Below, piece after piece: positions 24,348 through 33,197 of a stretch of 37,585 nt of DNA (position 1 is the first letter of the stretch; every line of letters begins with the position of its first letter). A program made the position numbers and the translations under genes. Source of the DNA: a virus (taxonomy: Duplodnaviria; Heunggongvirae; Uroviricota; Caudoviricetes); IMG/VR virus record IMGVR_UViG_2541047802_000015. The stretch is one strand, 5' to 3'. The notes under the pieces are model-generated. The model saw only the letters and a list, made by a program, of their open reading frames with translations. It had not been told where the DNA came from and did no database searches.

Positions 24348-25301
24348 ATGTCTGATTACTTAAAAAATAAACGCGTTGTTGATCCTGTTATGACCAGCAT
24401 CGCGCGTGGCTACAGGAATGCAGCCTTCATCGGAGAACATATATTTCCGGTTGTGTATACGGACAGAGAAGCGGTAACGGTCCCCGTTTTCGGGAGATCA
24501 GCGTTTGTGGAAGTTGATACCGTCCGTGCTGTGGGGGCAGACAGTAATGTTCTGATCAGGGAAAAGAGCAGTACGCTGGATCTGGTGTTGCATGAGCACG
24601 ATCTTGCTGCACCTGTGGACTACCGTGAACAGACGGAGTCAATGTTCAACGAAGAGGCCAAGGCAATCCGGCGGGTGACAAATGGCATTCATCTTCGCCG
24701 TGAGCTTATTGCTGCCCGTCTTGCGCAGGACAAAAAAGTGTACCCGGCATCTTCGGTAAAGACGATGACGTCTGTTGAACGCTGGGAAGGAGGCCATGGT
24801 GATCCTGTTGAGGTCATTGAGGGAGGCATTGAAGCTGTGCGAAGTAAGATCGGGGTCAGACCCAATCTGATGGTCATGGGAGCCAGTGTGATGCCCCTGC
24901 TGAGATATCATCCAGCCATCACCACTGCTCTGGGACTTAATGAGAGAAAACGGATCACCCCGCAAATCCTCAGGGAGCTTTTTGGTCTGGACAAGGTCAT
25001 TGTGGGTGAGCCTGTTTCCATGGCATCCATGACTGATGCAGGCAACCGGAACAAATATCCGGTGGACATCTGGGGAGATAATCTCATGCTCTTCTATGTC
25101 ACTCCACCGCGAGAAGGTGCCGAAAGTGCCGACGAAAATGAACCATCGTTCGGGTATACCCTGCGACGTAAGGGGATGCCGGTGGCAGATAAATACGATG
25201 GAGTGGGCGGAAAGGTGAAGTACTGCCGTTATACCGACATCTATAAGGTGGCGGTCGTGGGCGGGGATGCCGGTTATCTCGTTACAAATATAGTGAAGTA
25301 A
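24348..25301 (+). CDS. major capsid protein (Mu T-like)
   Basis: 317 aa; strong RBS; position after protease/scaffold. Confidence 0.8.
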   Translation: MSDYLKNKRVVDPVMTSIARGYRNAAFIGEHIFPVVYTDREAVTVPVFGRSAFVEVDTVRAVGADSNVLIREKSSTLDLVLHEHDLAAPVDYREQTESMFNEEAKAIRRVTNGIHLRRELIAARLAQDKKVYPASSVKTMTSVERWEGGHGDPVEVIEGGIEAVRSKIGVRPNLMVMGASVMPLLRYHPAITTALGLNERKRITPQILRELFGLDKVIVGEPVSMASMTDAGNRNKYPVDIWGDNLMLFYVTPPREGAESADENEPSFGYTLRRKGMPVADKYDGVGGKVKYCRYTDIYKVAVVGGDAGYLVTNIVK

Positions 25302-25311
25302 GGAGAAGTCT

Positions 25312-25647
25312 ATGACTACACAGCAGGTCACTCTGACCATGACAGTCACAGCCAGTACTGCACTTACTCAGCAGAGGTTTGTGGGAGCAGATAACGGCGC
25401 ATGTAAGCAGGGTGCCGTTGCCGTCGGTGTCGCCCAGGTGGATGCCCGTGCAGGTGATCTGACCCCGGTGAGTGTGACCGGGATCCTTGCAGTTGAAACG
25501 GGAGCGGCAGTTTCCAGAGGGGCACTGGTACAGTCTGATGCCAAATCAAGGGCTGTTCCTCAGGCTGACAGTGGTAAATCCTGTGGCATTGCACTGGATG
25601 AGGCAAAGGCCGAAGGCGACATCATCCGTATCCTGCGCGGGGTGTGA
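25312..25647 (+). CDS. small head-associated protein (possibly DUF2190-like)
   Basis: 111 aa, Ala/Val/Thr-rich; directly downstream of the major capsid gene. Confidence 0.45.
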   Translation: MTTQQVTLTMTVTASTALTQQRFVGADNGACKQGAVAVGVAQVDARAGDLTPVSVTGILAVETGAAVSRGALVQSDAKSRAVPQADSGKSCGIALDEAKAEGDIIRILRGV

Positions 25648-26559: not shown

Positions 26560-26810
26560 TGAAAGCATACCGCTATTCCGGCCCGGCCAGCGGCGTCACG
26601 CTGTCGGACGGAACCGAAATCCTGCTCTGGCCGGGGAAGACGTTTTCCCTGCCGGAGGAGCATGACTACGTGAAGGTACTGGTGGCGCTGAAACATCTGA
26701 CGCCGGTACCTGAAGAGACTAAACTCGCCGGCACACCGGCTGTGCAGTCACCAAAGCGCAGAAGCAGCAGTGACAGCGAAGTGAAAACGGAGGACACCCA
26801 TGGCAGCTAA
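26556..26810 (+). CDS. hypothetical small protein (84 aa) preceding the sheath gene
   Basis: Coupled ORF in the structural operon. Confidence 0.4.
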   Translation: MMKAYRYSGPASGVTLSDGTEILLWPGKTFSLPEEHDYVKVLVALKHLTPVPEETKLAGTPAVQSPKRRSSSDSEVKTEDTHGS

Positions 26811-28227
26811 CTATCTGCATGGTCCCGAAACCATTGAGGTGGAAAACGGTGCCCGCCCGGTTAAAACGGTGAAATCTGCCGTTATTGGCCTGATTGGTAC
26901 CGCCCCGATGGGGGACGTCAATACGCTGGTACAGTGCCTGTCTGAGAAAGACGCAGCGGCATTTGGCAGCCAGTTCACCGGCTTTACCATTCCGCAGGCG
27001 CTGGATGCGATTTATGACCATGGTGCAGGCACCGTTCTGGTCATTAACGTCCTCGACCCGGCGAAACATAAAACGGCGATCCAGGGTGAAGTGGTTACCT
27101 TTGACAAATCGACAGGGCAGGCCAGACTTGCGCATCCGGTTGTCGCTAATGTGGTGGTGAAAAACAGTGAAGGCAGCACCACCCACACGGCGAACACGGA
27201 CTACCGTGTTGATGCGCAGGCGGGTGTGCTCACGAACCTGGGCAAGGCTATTGAGGCCGGTGGCAGCGTGAAGGTGAGCTATGAGTACGCGGACCCGTCG
27301 AAGGTGACTGCGGCGGACATCATCGGCGGGGTGAACAGCGCCGGAAACCGAACCGGCATGAAGCTGCTTAACGACAGCTTCAACCTGTACGGCTATTTTG
27401 CCAAAATTCTGATTGCGCCGGTGTTCTGCACCCAGAAGAGTGTAGCAGTTGAGCTTATCGCCATGACAGAGAAGCTGGGCGCGGTAACCTACATTGATGC
27501 GCCTGTCGGTACCACCTTTGCACAGGCTCTGGCAGGTCGTGGCCCGGAAGGCACCATTAACTTCAATACCAGCTCCGACCGCGTCCGTCTGTGCTATCCG
27601 CATGTGAAGGTATATGACCCGGTGACAAACACGGAGCGTCTGGAGCCGCTCAGCCAGCGTGCAGCAGGTCTGCGTGCCAGAGTCGATCTGGACAAGGGCT
27701 ACTGGTGGTCATCCTCCAATCAGGAGATTCTGGGGATCACCGGCGTGGAGCGCCAGCTGTCCGCGATGATTGATGACCCGCAGAGTGAGGTGAACCTGCT
27801 TAACGAACAGGGGATCACCACGGTATTCAGCAGTTACGGCAGCGGCCTTCGTCTGTGGGGTAACCGGACGGCAGCATGGCCAACGGTCACCCATATGCGT
27901 AACTTTGAGAACGTTCGCCGCACCGGTGATGTGATCAACGAGTCCATTCGTTATTTCAGCCAGCAGTACATCGACATGCCGATTACTCAGGCGCTGATTG
28001 ATGCACTGACGGAGTCGGTCAACGCCTACGGTCGCAAAATGACTGGTGATGGTGCGGTACTGGGCTTCCGTTGCTGGTTTGATCCGGCCCGCAATCCGGA
28101 GACGGAGCTGGCCGCCGGGCACCTGTTGCTGAGCTACAAATATACGCCACCACCGCCGCTGGAGCGACTGACGTTTGAGACTGAGATCACCTCGGAATAC
28201 CTGTTAACCCTGAAAGGGGGCAACTGA
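26800..28227 (+). CDS. tail sheath protein
   Basis: 475 aa; size and position before the tube gene; family-like N-terminus. Confidence 0.8.
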   Translation: MAANYLHGPETIEVENGARPVKTVKSAVIGLIGTAPMGDVNTLVQCLSEKDAAAFGSQFTGFTIPQALDAIYDHGAGTVLVINVLDPAKHKTAIQGEVVTFDKSTGQARLAHPVVANVVVKNSEGSTTHTANTDYRVDAQAGVLTNLGKAIEAGGSVKVSYEYADPSKVTAADIIGGVNSAGNRTGMKLLNDSFNLYGYFAKILIAPVFCTQKSVAVELIAMTEKLGAVTYIDAPVGTTFAQALAGRGPEGTINFNTSSDRVRLCYPHVKVYDPVTNTERLEPLSQRAAGLRARVDLDKGYWWSSSNQEILGITGVERQLSAMIDDPQSEVNLLNEQGITTVFSSYGSGLRLWGNRTAAWPTVTHMRNFENVRRTGDVINESIRYFSQQYIDMPITQALIDALTESVNAYGRKMTGDGAVLGFRCWFDPARNPETELAAGHLLLSYKYTPPPPLERLTFETEITSEYLLTLKGGN

Positions 28228-28748
28228 TGTCAAAGATTGAGATAAACCGCATCACGAATGCCAACATCTATCTGGATGGTACTAACCTGCTGGGACGGGC
28301 TGAGGAAGTTAAACTCCCCGATGTCTCCATGATTATGCAGGAACACAAGGCGCTGGGGATGGTGGGTAAGGTGGAACTCCCGGCTGGTTTTGACAAACTG
28401 GAAGGCGAAATCAAATGGAACAGCTTTTACCGCGATGCGATGCTGTCTGCCGCGAACCCGTACAGGTCGCTGGCACTGCAGTGTCGTTCCAGCGTCCAGC
28501 GCTACAGCTCGCAGGGGCTGATTGACGAAATCCCGCTGGTCACCTTCCTGACGATTATGTTCAAGAAGAACCCGCTGGGGACGTTCAAACAGCACGAGAA
28601 CGCCGAGTTCTCCAGTAGCTTCACATGCACGTATATCAGACAGGTACTGGATGGTGAAGAGCTGCTGCAACTGGACTATCTGGCCAACATCTTCCGGGTC
28701 GGCGGTGTTGATCAACTGACTGACTACCGTATCAATATCGGGGGCTGA
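28227..28748 (+). CDS. tail tube protein
   Basis: 173 aa; immediately after the sheath gene with overlapping start/stop. Confidence 0.75.
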   Translation: MSKIEINRITNANIYLDGTNLLGRAEEVKLPDVSMIMQEHKALGMVGKVELPAGFDKLEGEIKWNSFYRDAMLSAANPYRSLALQCRSSVQRYSSQGLIDEIPLVTFLTIMFKKNPLGTFKQHENAEFSSSFTCTYIRQVLDGEELLQLDYLANIFRVGGVDQLTDYRINIGG

Positions 28749-28750
28749 CG

Positions 28751-29032
28751 GTGAGTGTTGAACTGACGGATAAAGGAGGACGATGTGCGGCACTGGGCAT
28801 GTCAAATGGTACGTGGTTTACCCTCCTTGATATTCCGGGGGTGGAAACCCTTTTTAATACCCGTAAAACCAATGACCCGATTGACTGCACACGTTCAAAG
28901 GCCCGCAGACTGGCGGATTTGATTGAAGCATGGGAGCCTCCCGACCACTGGTTCTCCGGCACCGGCAAATCTGAGGGAAAGACGCTTCTCATCGCTTTCC
29001 TGCGTAACTGCAAGGGGTTTCGCACTTGCTGA
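28751..29032 (+). CDS. hypothetical small protein between tube and chaperone genes
   Basis: 93-codon ORF with a GTG start, followed by a hairpin; could be non-coding. Confidence 0.3.
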   Translation: MSVELTDKGGRCAALGMSNGTWFTLLDIPGVETLFNTRKTNDPIDCTRSKARRLADLIEAWEPPDHWFSGTGKSEGKTLLIAFLRNCKGFRTC

Positions 29033-29038
29033 CATCAC

Positions 29039-29060
29039 AGGGGCTCCGGCCCCTTCTTCT
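29039..29060 (+). terminator. short GC hairpin with T-rich tail inside the tail operon
   Basis: 6-bp stem (AGGGGC pairs with GCCCCT) with TCCG loop, then TCTTCTT; overlaps the start of a putative late-promoter block. Confidence 0.3.
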
Positions 29061-29102
29061 TAATCTCCTTTAATATCCGTCACGCGCTTCTCCCGACATA
29101 CT
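29058..29102 (+). promoter_or_regulatory. putative internal late promoter upstream of the tail chaperone gene
   Basis: Block TCTTAATCTCCTTTAATATC, 19-nt spacer, then CATACT followed by GCCC; about 27 nt leader to ATG 29130 with AGGAG RBS. Confidence 0.45.
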
Positions 29103-29129
29103 GCCCTGAACTTACACAGGAGCACAATC

Positions 29130-29465
29130 ATGTCACAGACCCCATCCGATACTTTTAAATTGTCTTATCCCTTCACCACTGCTGCAGGCACCAGAATTGA
29201 GCTGGTTGAACTGAAACGCCTGACGGTAAAAGACCTGAAGCAGGTGCGCAAAATCAGCAAAAACCCGGCAGACTGGGACGAACCGCTGATTGCCCGCAGT
29301 ACTGGTCTTCTCCCGGAAGATCTCGACAATATGGATCTGGCTGATTACCTGCAGTTACAGAAACGATTTCAGCTCATCACGGGGATGGGTGAGAGCGACA
29401 AAGGCGCTGACGCAGGCGCAGGGGCTGCTGGCGAGATGGTTCCGGTTTCAGCCGGGGGAGATTGA
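29130..29465 (+). CDS. tail assembly chaperone
   Basis: 111 aa, acidic; position between tube and tape-measure genes; AGGAG RBS; overlapped by a second-frame ORF. Confidence 0.6.
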   Translation: MSQTPSDTFKLSYPFTTAAGTRIELVELKRLTVKDLKQVRKISKNPADWDEPLIARSTGLLPEDLDNMDLADYLQLQKRFQLITGMGESDKGADAGAGAAGEMVPVSAGGD

Positions 29466-29547
29466 TGCCCTCGATACTGACGATCTGGAGATGTGGCTGG
29501 AGCAGGCTGAAGAGCAAATAAAAAGCGAGTACGGCGACAAATCATAG
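29290..29547 (+). CDS. overlapping +1-frame ORF, candidate frameshift extension of the tail chaperone
   Basis: +1 frame is open through the chaperone 3' end and continues 82 nt past its stop; only the distal about 28 codons are likely to be translated as a fusion. Confidence 0.3.
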   Translation: MPAVLVFSRKISTIWIWLITCSYRNDFSSSRGWVRATKALTQAQGLLARWFRFQPGEIDALDTDDLEMWLEQAEEQIKSEYGDKS

Positions 29548-29552
29548 TACAG

Positions 29553-29573
29553 ACAGCCGCCAGTAGCGGCTGT
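29553..29573 (+). other. hairpin between chaperone region and tape-measure gene
   Basis: ACAGCCGC/GCGGCTGT 8-bp stem with 5-nt loop; weak T-tract after it. Confidence 0.3.
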
Positions 29574-29622
29574 TCTGCGTTATCCCCTCACGTCTTTTCA
29601 CCTTCCCCGGAGGTTAACCACT

Positions 29623-32313
29623 ATGTCGGGACAGTTTTCAGTCGGCGTTGTTATCGGCGGGATGATTGGCAGCACATTCCGTTCTGCAATGAGCGGTACC
29701 CGCCGTGCGCTTGATTCCCTGAGCGATACCTCACGCCGCCTGCAGGAACGTCAGAACGCTTTAACCCGTGCAACAGAACGTTATGGTCAACTGGGCTCTT
29801 CCCGGATGCAGCATCTCAACAGCGAGCTGCTGCGGGTAAGCCGCACCATGGAGCAAATTGAGCGCCAGCAGCGCCGTCTGTCAGCGGCATCAGCCACCAG
29901 TGATGCGCTGAAAGCTAACCGCATGGCGCTGTATGGTCAGGGGATTGAAGCGTATGGCATGGCACAGACTGTTTATCATACGGTTTCCCCTGCCGTTCAG
30001 CAGTCCATGTCTTTTCAGGACAAAATGATTGATATGTCGATCACCGCAAAATATGACAATAAAACGCGGGATGCACTTGCCGGACAGATAAAAGGCTGGG
30101 CGCAAAAATACAATCAGTATCAGGATGAACTGCAGGAGGCGGTGGGTTCGCTCATCAGCGACAATATTGATAACTTGTCAGATATCGGTTTTCTGATGCC
30201 GGATATTGCCCGCGCGGCAACGGCAACACGCACGTCATCTCAGGACTGGGCAAAAGTGGCCGCAGTCTGGCAAAACTCCCTGAAAGGTGCGGCCAGAGAT
30301 TTTAGTGCCGTCCAGAATATTATGGCTTATGCCGGTGACCAGGGGTCATTTGAAATCCCGGATCAGGTCAAGTGGATGCAGTCCCTGGCCCCAATGATGG
30401 CGGGTATTGCCAGTGGAAAAGAGGCTGTTGCTGAAATCGGGGCCAGTCTCCAGATAGCAAAAATCGGTGCGGGCTCCACCGACGAAGCAGCCAATAATTT
30501 TAAAAACTTTCTTACCAAAATTTTTGCCCGCGATACTCAGAAACAGTTTGCTGATCTGGGTATTGATTTGCAGGGTTCTGTTGCGAGTTATAAGGCTGCG
30601 GGGATCTCTCCGATTGAAGGGATGTTGAGTGTTATAGAACGTTACCTCAATGCCAAAAGCCCCGAAGCGCTGGCCGGCTTCAAATCCGCCATGAAAATAA
30701 AGAATGATACGGCAAGAGATGAGGCACTTCAGGCTCTGGCGAAAAACTTTGGTCTGGGCGATATGTTCGCGGATATGCAGGTCATGGCATTTATCCGCCC
30801 GATGCTGGCCAACATGGACAGATATCGCGAGATCCGTGCCGGTGCTCTCAGGGCTGCGGATAACGATTTGCTTGCCAGTGCTTACGATCAGCGGCTGAAA
30901 TCTCCCCTTGAAGCCACTAAAGCGCTTATGGTCAGCAGTCGCGATCTGGCTATTACGCTGGGCGATCAGCTCGCCCCCTCTTTTATTTCTCTGACTCAGG
31001 AGCTGATCCCACTCATTCAGGGGGCAAAACACTGGGTGGCGACTCACCCGCAATTTGTCAGTGGGGCTTTTAAGCTCATCAGTGCGCTCCTTGCGATTAA
31101 GATAGCGACTGTTGGTCTCAAACTGGGGCTGAATCTCCTTATTTCCCCCTTTGTGAACGTCTGGAAAACTGCTGTTTTACTCCGGACCAACTGGCATCGA
31201 CTGACTACCGCACTAGGAGAAGGTGGCAAATTACGCTGGCTTGTCACTGGATTTAGCCGACTGACCAGCGGAGGACTGAAACTCAGCAAAGTTCTGGCGG
31301 GCAGCCTCGTTCGCGGTTTTATGAGCGCTGCACGTGCCGTTCTCTGGATTGGGCGAGCGCTGATGATGAATCCCATCGGTCTCGTTATCACCGCTGTCGC
31401 GGCAGCAGCTTACCTTATCTACCGCAACTGGGGGACAGTCAGTGGCTGGTTTAAACAGCGCTGGGCTGACATTCAGGAAGCCTTTAACGGCGGTATCGCG
31501 GGAACTGGTAAGCTGCTGATTAACTGGTCGCCGGCAGGGCTGCTCTATAAAGCCTTTGCGGCTGCGCTGAAATATTTCGGCGTTGCTCTGCCGGCAAAGT
31601 TCACCGACTTCGGTGGCCATCTTGTCGACGGTCTGATTAACGGTATCAAAAACAAATGGGGGTCGCTCAAATCCAGTGTAACCGGAATGGGTGACAGCAT
31701 CAGTGGCTGGTTCAGTGAAAAGCTGGGTATTCATTCGCCGAGCCGCGTGTTTATGGGCTTTGGTGACAATATCGCGCAGGGGGCCGCCATTGGCCTGCAG
31801 CGGAGCACTCCGATTGCAGCTCTGGCCGGGCAGCGAATGGCCAGTGAACTGCTCCCCAGAATGCCCGTGAGCATTCAGGGGCCAGAAATACGGGATAACA
31901 CTTCAGGTGTTCGCTTCAGTATGCCGTTGCCCGATATCAACGGGTTTATGTCGTCTGCTAAAAATGCGATCGGATCCGTAATCAATAGTTTGTCTTCCAT
32001 GCCCGCTATTCCGATCTCCACCCGGGCATCGACTTTACCAGGTCAACGTCTGGCAAATGAGATGACACCGGATGTTCCCCGTATCCCCTCGCCTGAAATC
32101 CTGGCTGCCGGATATTCAGGCCGTGGTGCAGCTGCAACCGGCGGTGGAACGTCTGGTGGTATCCAGGTCAGCTTTAATCCTCAGTTTTTCCTCAATGGCA
32201 GGGAAACCACAGCGCCTGCAGGACTGACTGGTGCCCTGAATATGAGTCTGCATGAGCTGGAAAAAATGCTGGAGCGTCTGCTGGCTCAGAAACAACGTAA
32301 GGAGTACCGCTGA
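29623..32313 (+). CDS. tail tape measure protein
   Basis: 896 aa; Ala/Gly-rich with helical N-terminal half and hydrophobic central segments; canonical position after the chaperone. Confidence 0.85.
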   Translation: MSGQFSVGVVIGGMIGSTFRSAMSGTRRALDSLSDTSRRLQERQNALTRATERYGQLGSSRMQHLNSELLRVSRTMEQIERQQRRLSAASATSDALKANRMALYGQGIEAYGMAQTVYHTVSPAVQQSMSFQDKMIDMSITAKYDNKTRDALAGQIKGWAQKYNQYQDELQEAVGSLISDNIDNLSDIGFLMPDIARAATATRTSSQDWAKVAAVWQNSLKGAARDFSAVQNIMAYAGDQGSFEIPDQVKWMQSLAPMMAGIASGKEAVAEIGASLQIAKIGAGSTDEAANNFKNFLTKIFARDTQKQFADLGIDLQGSVASYKAAGISPIEGMLSVIERYLNAKSPEALAGFKSAMKIKNDTARDEALQALAKNFGLGDMFADMQVMAFIRPMLANMDRYREIRAGALRAADNDLLASAYDQRLKSPLEATKALMVSSRDLAITLGDQLAPSFISLTQELIPLIQGAKHWVATHPQFVSGAFKLISALLAIKIATVGLKLGLNLLISPFVNVWKTAVLLRTNWHRLTTALGEGGKLRWLVTGFSRLTSGGLKLSKVLAGSLVRGFMSAARAVLWIGRALMMNPIGLVITAVAAAAYLIYRNWGTVSGWFKQRWADIQEAFNGGIAGTGKLLINWSPAGLLYKAFAAALKYFGVALPAKFTDFGGHLVDGLINGIKNKWGSLKSSVTGMGDSISGWFSEKLGIHSPSRVFMGFGDNIAQGAAIGLQRSTPIAALAGQRMASELLPRMPVSIQGPEIRDNTSGVRFSMPLPDINGFMSSAKNAIGSVINSLSSMPAIPISTRASTLPGQRLANEMTPDVPRIPSPEILAAGYSGRGAAATGGGTSGGIQVSFNPQFFLNGRETTAPAGLTGALNMSLHELEKMLERLLAQKQRKEYR

Positions 32314-33197
32314 TGTTTGCCGTACTGGGTGATATTGAGTTTGATCTGATTACCTACTGGGACGGCTTCGAGGCCACGTTCGGCGTCGATTATGCGGAGC
32401 ATGCCCGCATCGGGGGTAAGCCTGGCCTGCAGTTCGTCGGCGACAGGCTGGACGAAATCCAGATAAGTCTGGTCTTCCATCAGCATTATTGTGCACCCGA
32501 TGTGGAGCTGGCGAGACTGCGAACAACCATGAAAGCCCATCAGGCACTGGCGCTGGTCTTCGGCAACGGTGACTATCGTGGCTGGTTCGTGATTACCGAT
32601 GTGACCGCAACCAGCGAGCAGACAGACAGCACCGGTAACGTGCTGGCTGTCAGTGCCACCGTGTCTCTCCGGGAATACACCGGTGATCCGAAAAATCCTC
32701 TGCAACCACCGGCAATACGCACGAAGCTCCCGGGTGTCGGGGCGGTCTCCGGTGCCATTCCTTCACCTTCAGGGGTGGCGCAGTTCATCCGCAACGGCGT
32801 CAACTATGCGAAACAGGCGCAGTCTGTACTCCAGACCACTATCAGCGCCGTTCGGGTGACACAGAAAATGAAGGATAACCCCGTTGTCGCACTGACCCGT
32901 GTGCCGGGGCTGATGAGCGGACTGGGTAATATCTCCGGGGCTCTGGGGAAAAGTGTTCCGGCGTTTAACGCACTCTCTGAATCCATGCCCGATGCCATCA
33001 GTCTGGCCAGAACAGCCAGCGAAGCAGCCACGTATGTACAGCAGGCACAGTCTGCGCTGAGTGGTGTGGACAAAAGAAATATTGCAGGTGCTCTGGATAC
33101 CGTTTCCGGGCAGCTTAACGCCGCCAGCACAGCATTCAACCGCATGTCTCCGGGATTAAGTGCAATGGCCGCCAGAATACTGACGAGGAGTGTGTGA
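32313..33197 (+). CDS. tail protein (Mu N / DNA-circularisation N-terminal-domain-like, P2 gpU-like)
   Basis: 294 aa; N-terminus MFAVLGDIEFDL... resembles the gpU/DNA_circ_N family; position after the tape measure. Confidence 0.6.
   Translation: MFAVLGDIEFDLITYWDGFEATFGVDYAEHARIGGKPGLQFVGDRLDEIQISLVFHQHYCAPDVELARLRTTMKAHQALALVFGNGDYRGWFVITDVTATSEQTDSTGNVLAVSATVSLREYTGDPKNPLQPPAIRTKLPGVGAVSGAIPSPSGVAQFIRNGVNYAKQAQSVLQTTISAVRVTQKMKDNPVVALTRVPGLMSGLGNISGALGKSVPAFNALSESMPDAISLARTASEAATYVQQAQSALSGVDKRNIAGALDTVSGQLNAASTAFNRMSPGLSAMAARILTRSV

Follow-up and report, generated by a model that had tools for sequence, protein, structure and literature searches.

A probable +1 ribosomal frameshift at a conserved UUU_C in the gene for the tail assembly chaperone in a BcepMu-like prophage

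The 37,585-nucleotide (nt) stretch of viral DNA analysed here (IMG/VR virus record IMGVR_UViG_2541047802_000015, referred to below as the window) carries a prophage tail assembly chaperone gene, E, and an overlapping second reading frame, E', which continues past the end of E. A second chaperone product of the prophage is almost certainly made by a programmed one-base forward slip of the ribosome between these two frames. The slip probably takes place at the sequence TTT_C (positions 29367-29370), where tRNA-Phe in the ribosomal P site would move forward by one base, yielding a fusion protein, E+E', of 138 amino acids (aa). A frameshift in the tail chaperone gene is in itself textbook knowledge and a classic, conserved feature of tailed phages. 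The arguments below concern its direction and its site.

Gene E runs from an ATG at 29130 to a TGA at 29463-29465, with codons beginning at positions equal to 0 modulo 3, and FQLITGMGESDK would be the mark of its frame-0 product. Residues 8-81 matched the Pfam profile PF10109 (Phage_TAC_7) with an E-value of 5.5e-21 and 74.8 bits (cut-off 25), and the protein matched phrog_166, annotated as 'tail protein', with an E-value of 4.6e-32. Judged by these similarities, E is a homologue of P2 gpE, the major tail assembly chaperone. Together with the position of the gene between the tube and tape measure genes, the PF10109 match upheld the suggestion, made in an earlier reading of the sequence (the original prediction), that this is a two-frame tail assembly chaperone. 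Past F80, the tail of E is of low complexity and its stop position differs among relatives. The +1 frame (positions equal to 1 modulo 3) has a stop codon at 29287-29289, is open from 29290 and ends with a TAG at 29545-29547; inspection of the open reading frames (ORFs) thus bore out the earlier coordinates, which had E ending at 29465 and the +1 frame open to 29547. The chance of 85 stop-free codons in a row is approximately (61/64)^85 = 0.02. Since the second frame lies at 1 modulo 3 and E at 0 modulo 3, entry into it requires a shift of +1 or -2, not of -1. The -1 frame was considered as well, but it is open only at 29411-29521, encodes a peptide unrelated to gpE' and does not keep its length in relatives.

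The peptide encoded in the +1 frame is, on profile comparison, a homologue of gpE', the second-frame part of the corresponding P2 protein. When eight E' peptides of the +1 class were aligned with P2-type E' peptides using hhalign, a probability of 97.6% and an E-value of 4.1e-12 were obtained over 44 columns, the match beginning at codon 29407. The Pfam profile PF06528 (Phage_P2_GpE) matched the +1 ORF alone with an E-value of 0.023 and the E+E' fusion with an E-value of 0.0016 and 18.4 bits, profile positions 4-36 falling at 29428-29526. E' also matched phrog_8286 (E-value 8.7e-34), and an NCBIfam search of E and E' gave no useful match. Residue W6 of E' is invariant across an alignment of eight lineages, including BcepMu and a Pseudomonas phage; of 73 sequences, 72-73 keep each of the T, G and G of its codon, and variation (M/L/V, then G/A/V/D) occurs at the frame-0 positions on either side.

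To place the window among its relatives, 32 loci from one-genome-per-species bacterial genomes and 80 viral contigs were gathered, along with further loci from Burkholderia, Ralstonia, Pseudomonas and Pasteurella relatives. The alignment held 81 unique sequences, 79 of them intact; occurrences of TTT_C were counted over 78 intact sequences and base identity over 73. According to tblastn, 116 of 118 loci have E' in the +1 frame relative to E, in line with the direction that had been deduced earlier from the window's coordinates (+1 or -2, not -1), and all 38 unique relatives of the Burkholderia (BcepMu-type), Ralstonia and Pseudomonas types also have the +1 arrangement. The downstream frame, whose loss in relatives the original prediction had named among the signs that would count against a fusion, is kept in the orthologous chaperone loci. 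Codon-position entropy followed the frame-0 pattern, with the wobble position most variable, up to 29369, and the +1 pattern from about 29400 to the end.

The two exceptions among the 118 loci are an Apirhabdus copy and a Pasteurella phage of the -1 (P2-like) type. In Apirhabdus apintestini (CP138906.1, positions 1501-1914 of locus L026), a one-base deletion approximately five codons before the TTT puts E and E' into one frame of 137 aa. No separate E is possible from this copy, which represents either a decaying prophage or a sequencing error. The Pasteurella phage AFS-2018a type (L123, L159-L166) and one further locus (L157) combine PF10109 with the gpE' family and have E' in the -1 frame. 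The apparent site in these loci is an A-rich sequence at the extreme end of E, where the protein finishes in ...QKGK, and not the T-run of P2. By this comparison, the PF10109 and gpE' family would use at least three sites and both directions.

The stop codons of both frames in the relatives narrow down where ribosomes could change frame. On the 5' side, the last stop in the +1 frame ends no later than 29352 among the Enterobacterales relatives, and genes of the Ralstonia and Pseudomonas types have a +1-frame TGA three codons ahead of the TTC. On the 3' side, the bound is set by the invariant +1-frame Trp at 29386-29388, which is found in all lineages, and the earliest frame-0 stop among the relatives lies at the equivalent of 29400. 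A Lys in the +1 frame (29401-29403) is retained, and frame 0 at this point switches among K, E and Q. Pooling the stops of both frames thus points to a shift confined to about 29358-29385.

Within this zone, no sequence is invariant except CGATTTC. All 73 sequences share its C, G, T, T, T and C, and 72 of 73 share its A; across the E/E' alignment, which holds 81 unique sequences, no other run of at least 6 nt has an entropy of 0.1 bit or less. The wobble base of TTT has an entropy of 0. Upstream, 75 degenerate wobble positions average 1.13 bits, and a single one of them equals the wobble bases of CGA and TTT in conservation. Within the dual-open zone, every intact unique sequence (78/78) carries one in-frame TTT_C and no more, and TTT_C is also kept in the Burkholderia, Ralstonia and Pseudomonas relatives. 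CGA is a rare codon, accounting for 8 of the 109 Arg codons in the tail genes of the window. TTT accounts for 13 of the 99 Phe codons in BcepMu, where it is the minor one, yet it is retained at the site by all BcepMu-type genes. The site is not a canonical X_XXY_YYZ heptamer.

From these comparisons we infer that slippage takes place at this site, that it is ribosomal and that it is a P-site slip, whose efficiency, judged from lambda and Mu, would be a few per cent. A minority of ribosomes would slip with UUU (Phe80, 29367-29369) in the P site, the peptidyl-tRNA-Phe, with its anticodon GAA, stepping one base onto UUC (29368-29370). UUC is the codon that pairs better with GAA. In E. coli, UUU-pyrimidine sites are reportedly prone to +1 shifting (Schwartz and Curran 1997). 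After the slip, reading in the +1 frame would continue from AGC at 29371 through the TAG at 29545-29547, giving the predicted junction ...LQKRF-SSSRGW... and a post-shift part of 58 aa, SSSRGW...GDKS. The resulting protein would begin with the chaperone domain (M1-F80, 80 residues), continue with about 17 linker residues and finish in a gpE'-type domain some 35 residues long, with PF10109 matching residues 8-82 of the fusion and PF06528 residues 100-132. The tail proposed earlier, PGEIDALDTDDLEMWLEQAEEQIKSEYGDKS, is a correct +1-frame translation, but it has 31 residues instead of the 28 given for it, and it falls short of the 58 that follow a shift at TTT_C. By analogy with P2 E/E+E' and lambda G/GT, E and E+E' would share their N-terminus, act jointly on the tape measure and tube proteins and be needed in a fixed ratio.

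Two other routes into the second frame at or around the same bases were considered. A -2 event at TTT_C is implausible, as UUU would need to re-pair with GAU. Transcriptional slippage was discarded because the site has just three T, too few for it, and the neighbouring A-runs are short and not conserved.

Several observations weigh against the proposed slip at TTT_C. The codon that would enter the A site in the window, CAG, is not a slow one, unlike at classic +1 sites. The flanking codons vary by lineage and follow no shared context rule: the Enterobacterales sequences read CGA_TTT_CAG/CAA/CAT/CGC, with one relative having CGG in place of CGA (CGG_TTT_CAG), the Ralstonia type reads CGA_TTT_CTG/CTT, the Burkholderia BcepMu type TCC/GCC_TTT_CGC or TCT_TTT_CGT, and the Pseudomonas type GTG_TTT_CGG or ACG_TTT_CAA. 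The idea that the UUU always has an Arg codon beside it was tried and dropped, since it is true in most lineages but fails in the Pseudomonas-type locus with ACG_TTT_CAA (L177), which has no CGA before the site and no CGN after it. The invariance of CGA and TTT could also partly reflect constraint on R79 and F80 of the protein combined with some other constraint at the nucleotide level, and the sequences compared share ancestry, so that the counts above do not represent independent events. Moreover, the PF06528 score of the fusion lies below the Pfam cut-off of 23 bits. Nor was a stimulator of frameshifting apparent. Folding of the sequence downstream of the site did not surpass that of shuffled versions (z -0.02 and -0.77), compensatory pairs were lacking in an alignment fold made from 16 diverse relatives, an Rfam search of 28900-29700 gave no match, and no Shine-Dalgarno-like sequence was seen by eye directly upstream of the site. 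A small hairpin at 29372-29397, which appeared in single-sequence folds, was missing from the consensus fold of the 16 relatives.

Instead of being fused to E, E' could be a small independent protein with a start codon inside E, for example the GTG at 29389, which would give a 52-aa 'GpE family phage tail protein'. The Prokaryotic Genome Annotation Pipeline (PGAP) and other pipelines do call stand-alone ORFs of 40-52 aa here, and a GGGGA lies close upstream of this GTG. The spacing between the two is just 3 nt, however, and the invariant +1-frame Trp sits upstream of the GTG. The position and kind of start-like codon in the +1 frame differ from relative to relative, and in 9 of 78 unique sequences none precedes the E' domain. 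In P2, the homologous E' is made only as E+E' by frameshifting (P2 GenBank record; PMC3091744). An independent E' is therefore considered unlikely.

A +1 or -2 shift elsewhere in 29358-29385 is an equally unlikely alternative to slippage at TTT_C. Candidates such as ACG_GGG_A (29379-29385), with four G at 29381-29384, and AAA_C (29361-29364) fall within the zone bounded by the stops. The GGG of the former, however, is replaced by GGT, GGC or AGC in several relatives, its preceding base varies, and the run is missing from the BcepMu, Ralstonia and Pseudomonas types. The AAA of the latter varies, and its re-pairing with AAC would be poor. None of these alternatives is conserved, in contrast to TTT_C, which every sequence has kept.

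The original prediction had named a run of G just before the E stop (context GCC GGG GGA GAT TGA) as the only obvious slippery candidate, but this run is not conserved, and the conserved TTT_C lies approximately 85 bases upstream of it. A shift on GCC_GGG_GGA (29451-29459) could be +1, from GGG to GGG, or -2 as in phage Mu, from GGA back to GGG, and would give a product of 138 or 139 aa with only about 28 residues in the new frame (...VSAG-EIDALD... for +1, ...VSAGG-EIDALD... for -2). The five G do lie within the overlap, the frame geometry fits, the verified -2 site of Mu is also a five-G run (CGG_GGG_CGA), and frame 0 extends as far as the G-run in the window and, among the 81 unique relatives, in 24. 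In 42 of 79 intact unique relatives, however, the frame-0 stop is upstream of the run, so that in about half of the relatives frame-0 ribosomes never reach it. Across the 81 unique sequences, frame-0 stops were located at the equivalents of 29400 (1 sequence), 29412 (4), 29442 (36), 29457 (14) and 29463 (24), and two more sequences have early frame-0 stops. Many relatives have CCGAGTGAG in place of the G-run, and genes from Brenneria, Pectobacterium, Lonsdalea, Dickeya and the Ralstonia type read CAG CCG AGT GAG, without a G-run. The homology to gpE' starts about 50 nt upstream of the run (at about 29407), and the selection pattern of the +1 frame in the codon-phase entropy, from about 29400, likewise begins well upstream. 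Finally, the fusion that a shift on the G-run would produce (P0002) has no PF06528 match and loses the first third of the gpE' domain, including the conserved LLARWFRFQP. Taken together, this makes the G-run an improbable site; at most, it could support a minor extra slip in this particular phage, for which no selection was seen.

At least six Logan contigs (L178-L183) from different sequencing runs have four G at this run instead of five, which brings the end of E' into frame with E (P0002, 138 aa). Homopolymer errors are a more likely explanation for them than real variation, because one of the contigs also has a broken tape measure gene. Protein database entries of 135-147 aa that join E and E' in frame were also inspected for a hint of the shift site. 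Their junctions fall at several different places, and most of the entries stem from assemblies that are short or full of indels; sequencing error appears to be their origin, and they give no position for the site.

That the downstream frame is a functionless, decaying remnant, with only the 111-aa protein mattering, is very improbable: no frameshift is annotated in the database records inspected, but the +1 peptide is kept from Enterobacterales to Burkholderia and Pseudomonas with a pattern of purifying selection at its own wobble positions, and it shares homology with the E' portion of P2 E+E', marked as an essential tail protein in the P2 GenBank record.

The closest known system is that of P2, in which E of 91 aa and E+E' of 142 aa are made through a -1 slip on T_TTT_TTG, with no downstream structure (PMC3091744). 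The window resembles P2 in having homologous PF10109 chaperone and E' domains between the tube and tape measure genes, in lacking a downstream RNA structure, and in the proportions of the fusion, which are 80 + 58 residues in the window and 84 + 58 in P2, where PF10109 covers residues 7-85 and PF06528 residues 104-139. The proposed slip codon of the window and that of P2 are both a Phe UUU on the C-terminal border of PF10109 (profile position about 74 in the window and about 77 in P2). The differences from P2 are that the shift is +1 instead of -1, and that the T-run heptamer is replaced by a UUU_C tetranucleotide at which a single tRNA would slip. The frame-0 tail after the site, moreover, is 31 aa long and of variable length (7 aa in P2), and an additional 93-aa gene (DUF7739) lies between the tube gene and E.

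In phage Mu, where a -2 shift between gp41 and Mu_56 has been verified, the second frame is also at +1/-2, the gene position is the same, and the Mu protein has a weak PF10109 match. Unlike in Mu, the G-run of the window is not conserved, and the conserved TTT_C cannot support -2 re-pairing. Mu gp41 belongs to PF23746, for which a profile search gave no match with window E, and the Mu extension has, by eye, no obvious similarity to gpE'.

In lambda, the longer product GT is made by a -1 shift on the heptamer G_GGA_AAG. The window E/E' has no sequence similarity to lambda G/GT, but in both systems two products with a common N-terminus, the minor one recoded, are encoded between the major tail and tape measure genes (PMC5009743, PMC2628397). 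Three features of a lambda-type chaperone pair (Xu, Hendrix and Duda 2004) are present in the window, namely the gene position, an overlapping ORF without a conserved start codon and a conserved slip sequence. Tailed phages as a whole use -1, -2 or +1 shifts at the tail-chaperone gene pair (PMC5009743), with -1 as the rule, -2 in Mu and +1 in a few (PMC5009743, PMC2628397, PMC3498833).

With respect to the site itself, the nearest counterpart is found in influenza A virus PA-X, in which UUU_C in the context UCC_UUU_CGU is an established +1 P-site slip, and from which a class of UUU_C sites tuned by neighbouring codons has been predicted (PMC3498833). The tetranucleotide and the re-pairing of P-site tRNA-Phe to UUC would be shared with the window. 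The BcepMu sequence TCC_TTT_CGC equals the PA-X motif except for its last base, and CGN after the TTT occurs only in the BcepMu-, Pseudomonas- and Symbiopectobacterium-type relatives. PA-X, in contrast, is eukaryotic and not homologous, and in the window the next codon is CAG instead of CGN, with CGA preceding.

CGA is decoded through inosine-adenine wobble. In yeast, codon pairs containing CGA distort mRNA at the A site and cause +1 frameshifting if surveillance factors are absent (PMC6301793; bioRxiv 10.1101/755652). The near-invariant CGA before the UUU may therefore matter for the slip, but this is offered as a lead only, because the yeast data are eukaryotic and the Burkholderia and Pseudomonas relatives have no CGA at this point.

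At the equivalent locus in the type phage of the genus, BcepMu (AY539836), the annotators too expected a chaperone pair made by slippage. The record (24602-25363) describes gp42 to gp43 as a lambda G/T-like slippage pair. The conserved relation is instead that of gp41 (E) to gp42 (E'), through a +1 shift at TCC_TTT_CGC, and the window has no counterpart of gp43, as the tape measure gene starts just 75 nt after the stop of E'.

None of the records inspected has a frameshift annotated, E' being either ignored or called as a free protein of 40-52 aa. For a degraded copy, the +1 ORF appears in the PGAP annotation as a 52-aa 'GpE family phage tail protein', and the same name is given to ORFs of 40-52 aa in other genomes. 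In two E. coli RefSeq records (L004 and L003), the locus tags skip one number between the chaperone and tape measure genes (RS21890 to RS21880 and RS22145 to RS22155, respectively); a feature at the position of E' may have been called there and later dropped or hidden. The long chaperone is absent from the records inspected, including RefSeq, and the annotation could be corrected by joining E and E' at the single in-frame TTT_C.

A broader proposition, which we regard as evenly poised, is that the direction of frameshifting has flipped within the P2 E/E' family: P2-type members would shift -1 on T_TTT_TTG, and a large BcepMu-type clade in Beta- and Gammaproteobacteria would shift +1 on a bare UUU_C, the Phe UUU being kept. 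RNA-structure or Shine-Dalgarno stimulators would apparently not be needed, and the site would be a bacterial counterpart of PA-X, possibly tuned by its neighbouring codons. These may be the CGA before the site in the enterobacterial and Ralstonia types and the CGN after it in the Burkholderia and Pseudomonas types. No description of +1 use by the BcepMu-type branch of this family, or of UUU_C as its site, was found in the literature and database records searched, a weak negative since primary papers lay outside the search. If the proposal is correct, bacteria have a +1 site of the UUU_C type that is natural and widely conserved, has no obvious stimulator and belongs to a family that otherwise uses -1. 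Such a site would be a convenient system for studying what sets the direction and efficiency of low-level frameshifting, as well as the effect of a preceding CGA with its inosine-adenine wobble. The case is built on comparative sequence evidence throughout; it is of moderate interest for recoding studies and phage annotation, and otherwise ordinary.

Table 1. Positions in the window of the tail genes, the two chaperone reading frames and the candidate shift sites.
Feature	Position	Strand	Basis or remark
Sheath gene	26800-28227		PF04984, PF17482
Tube gene	28227-28748		PF04985
93-aa ORF	28751-29032		Weak DUF7739; phrog_1239 (E-value 1.3e-47)
Gene E, tail assembly chaperone, 111 aa	29130-29465	+	PF10109 Phage_TAC_7, phrog_166
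Mechanical +1-frame ORF, 85 codons from TTG	29290-29547	+	Extent of the open +1 frame in the window
Predicted E+E' fusion, 138 aa (80 + 58)	29130-29369 joined to 29371-29547, one base skipped	+	PF10109 + PF06528
CGA_TTT_C, proposed +1 shift site (TTT_C = 29367-29370, Phe80)	29364-29370	+	Invariance in relatives
E' segment, 58 codons post-shift and stop TAG 29545-29547	29371-29547	+	Sequence SSSRGWVRATKALTQAQGLLARWFRFQPGEIDALDTDDLEMWLEQAEEQIKSEYGDKS
TGG, invariant +1-frame Trp, post-shift residue 6	29386-29388	+	Latest point for being in the +1 frame
E' core homologous to P2 gpE', post-shift residues 13-56	29407-29538	+	hhalign
GGGGG run, earlier candidate site; encodes Pro-Gly-Glu of E' in some lineages	29454-29458	+	Not a conserved shift site
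Tape measure gene	29623-32313	+	PF10145 (E-value 2e-20)
gpU homologue gene	32313-33197		PF06995

The window is a BcepMu-like prophage with a P2-type contractile-tail module, in which the tail genes follow the order sheath, tube, 93-aa ORF, E, tape measure and gpU homologue (Table 1). The window is 99.5% identical to Escherichia phage PhiKM of the genus Bcepmuvirus, and the prophage region is present in 637 of 5426 complete E. coli genomes (approximately 12%). Within the 75 nt that lie between E' and the tape measure gene, a perfect 8-base-pair inverted repeat, ACAGCCGC-CAGTA-GCGGCTGT, was noted by eye at 29553-29573; it has no T-run behind it and was not flagged by a terminator scan. The 93-aa ORF between the tube gene and E is conserved, and P2 has no gene at that position. 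Between this ORF and E, inside the tail operon, a terminator-like hairpin (AGGGGC-TCCG-GCCCCT) followed by TCTTCTT is located at 29039-29054.

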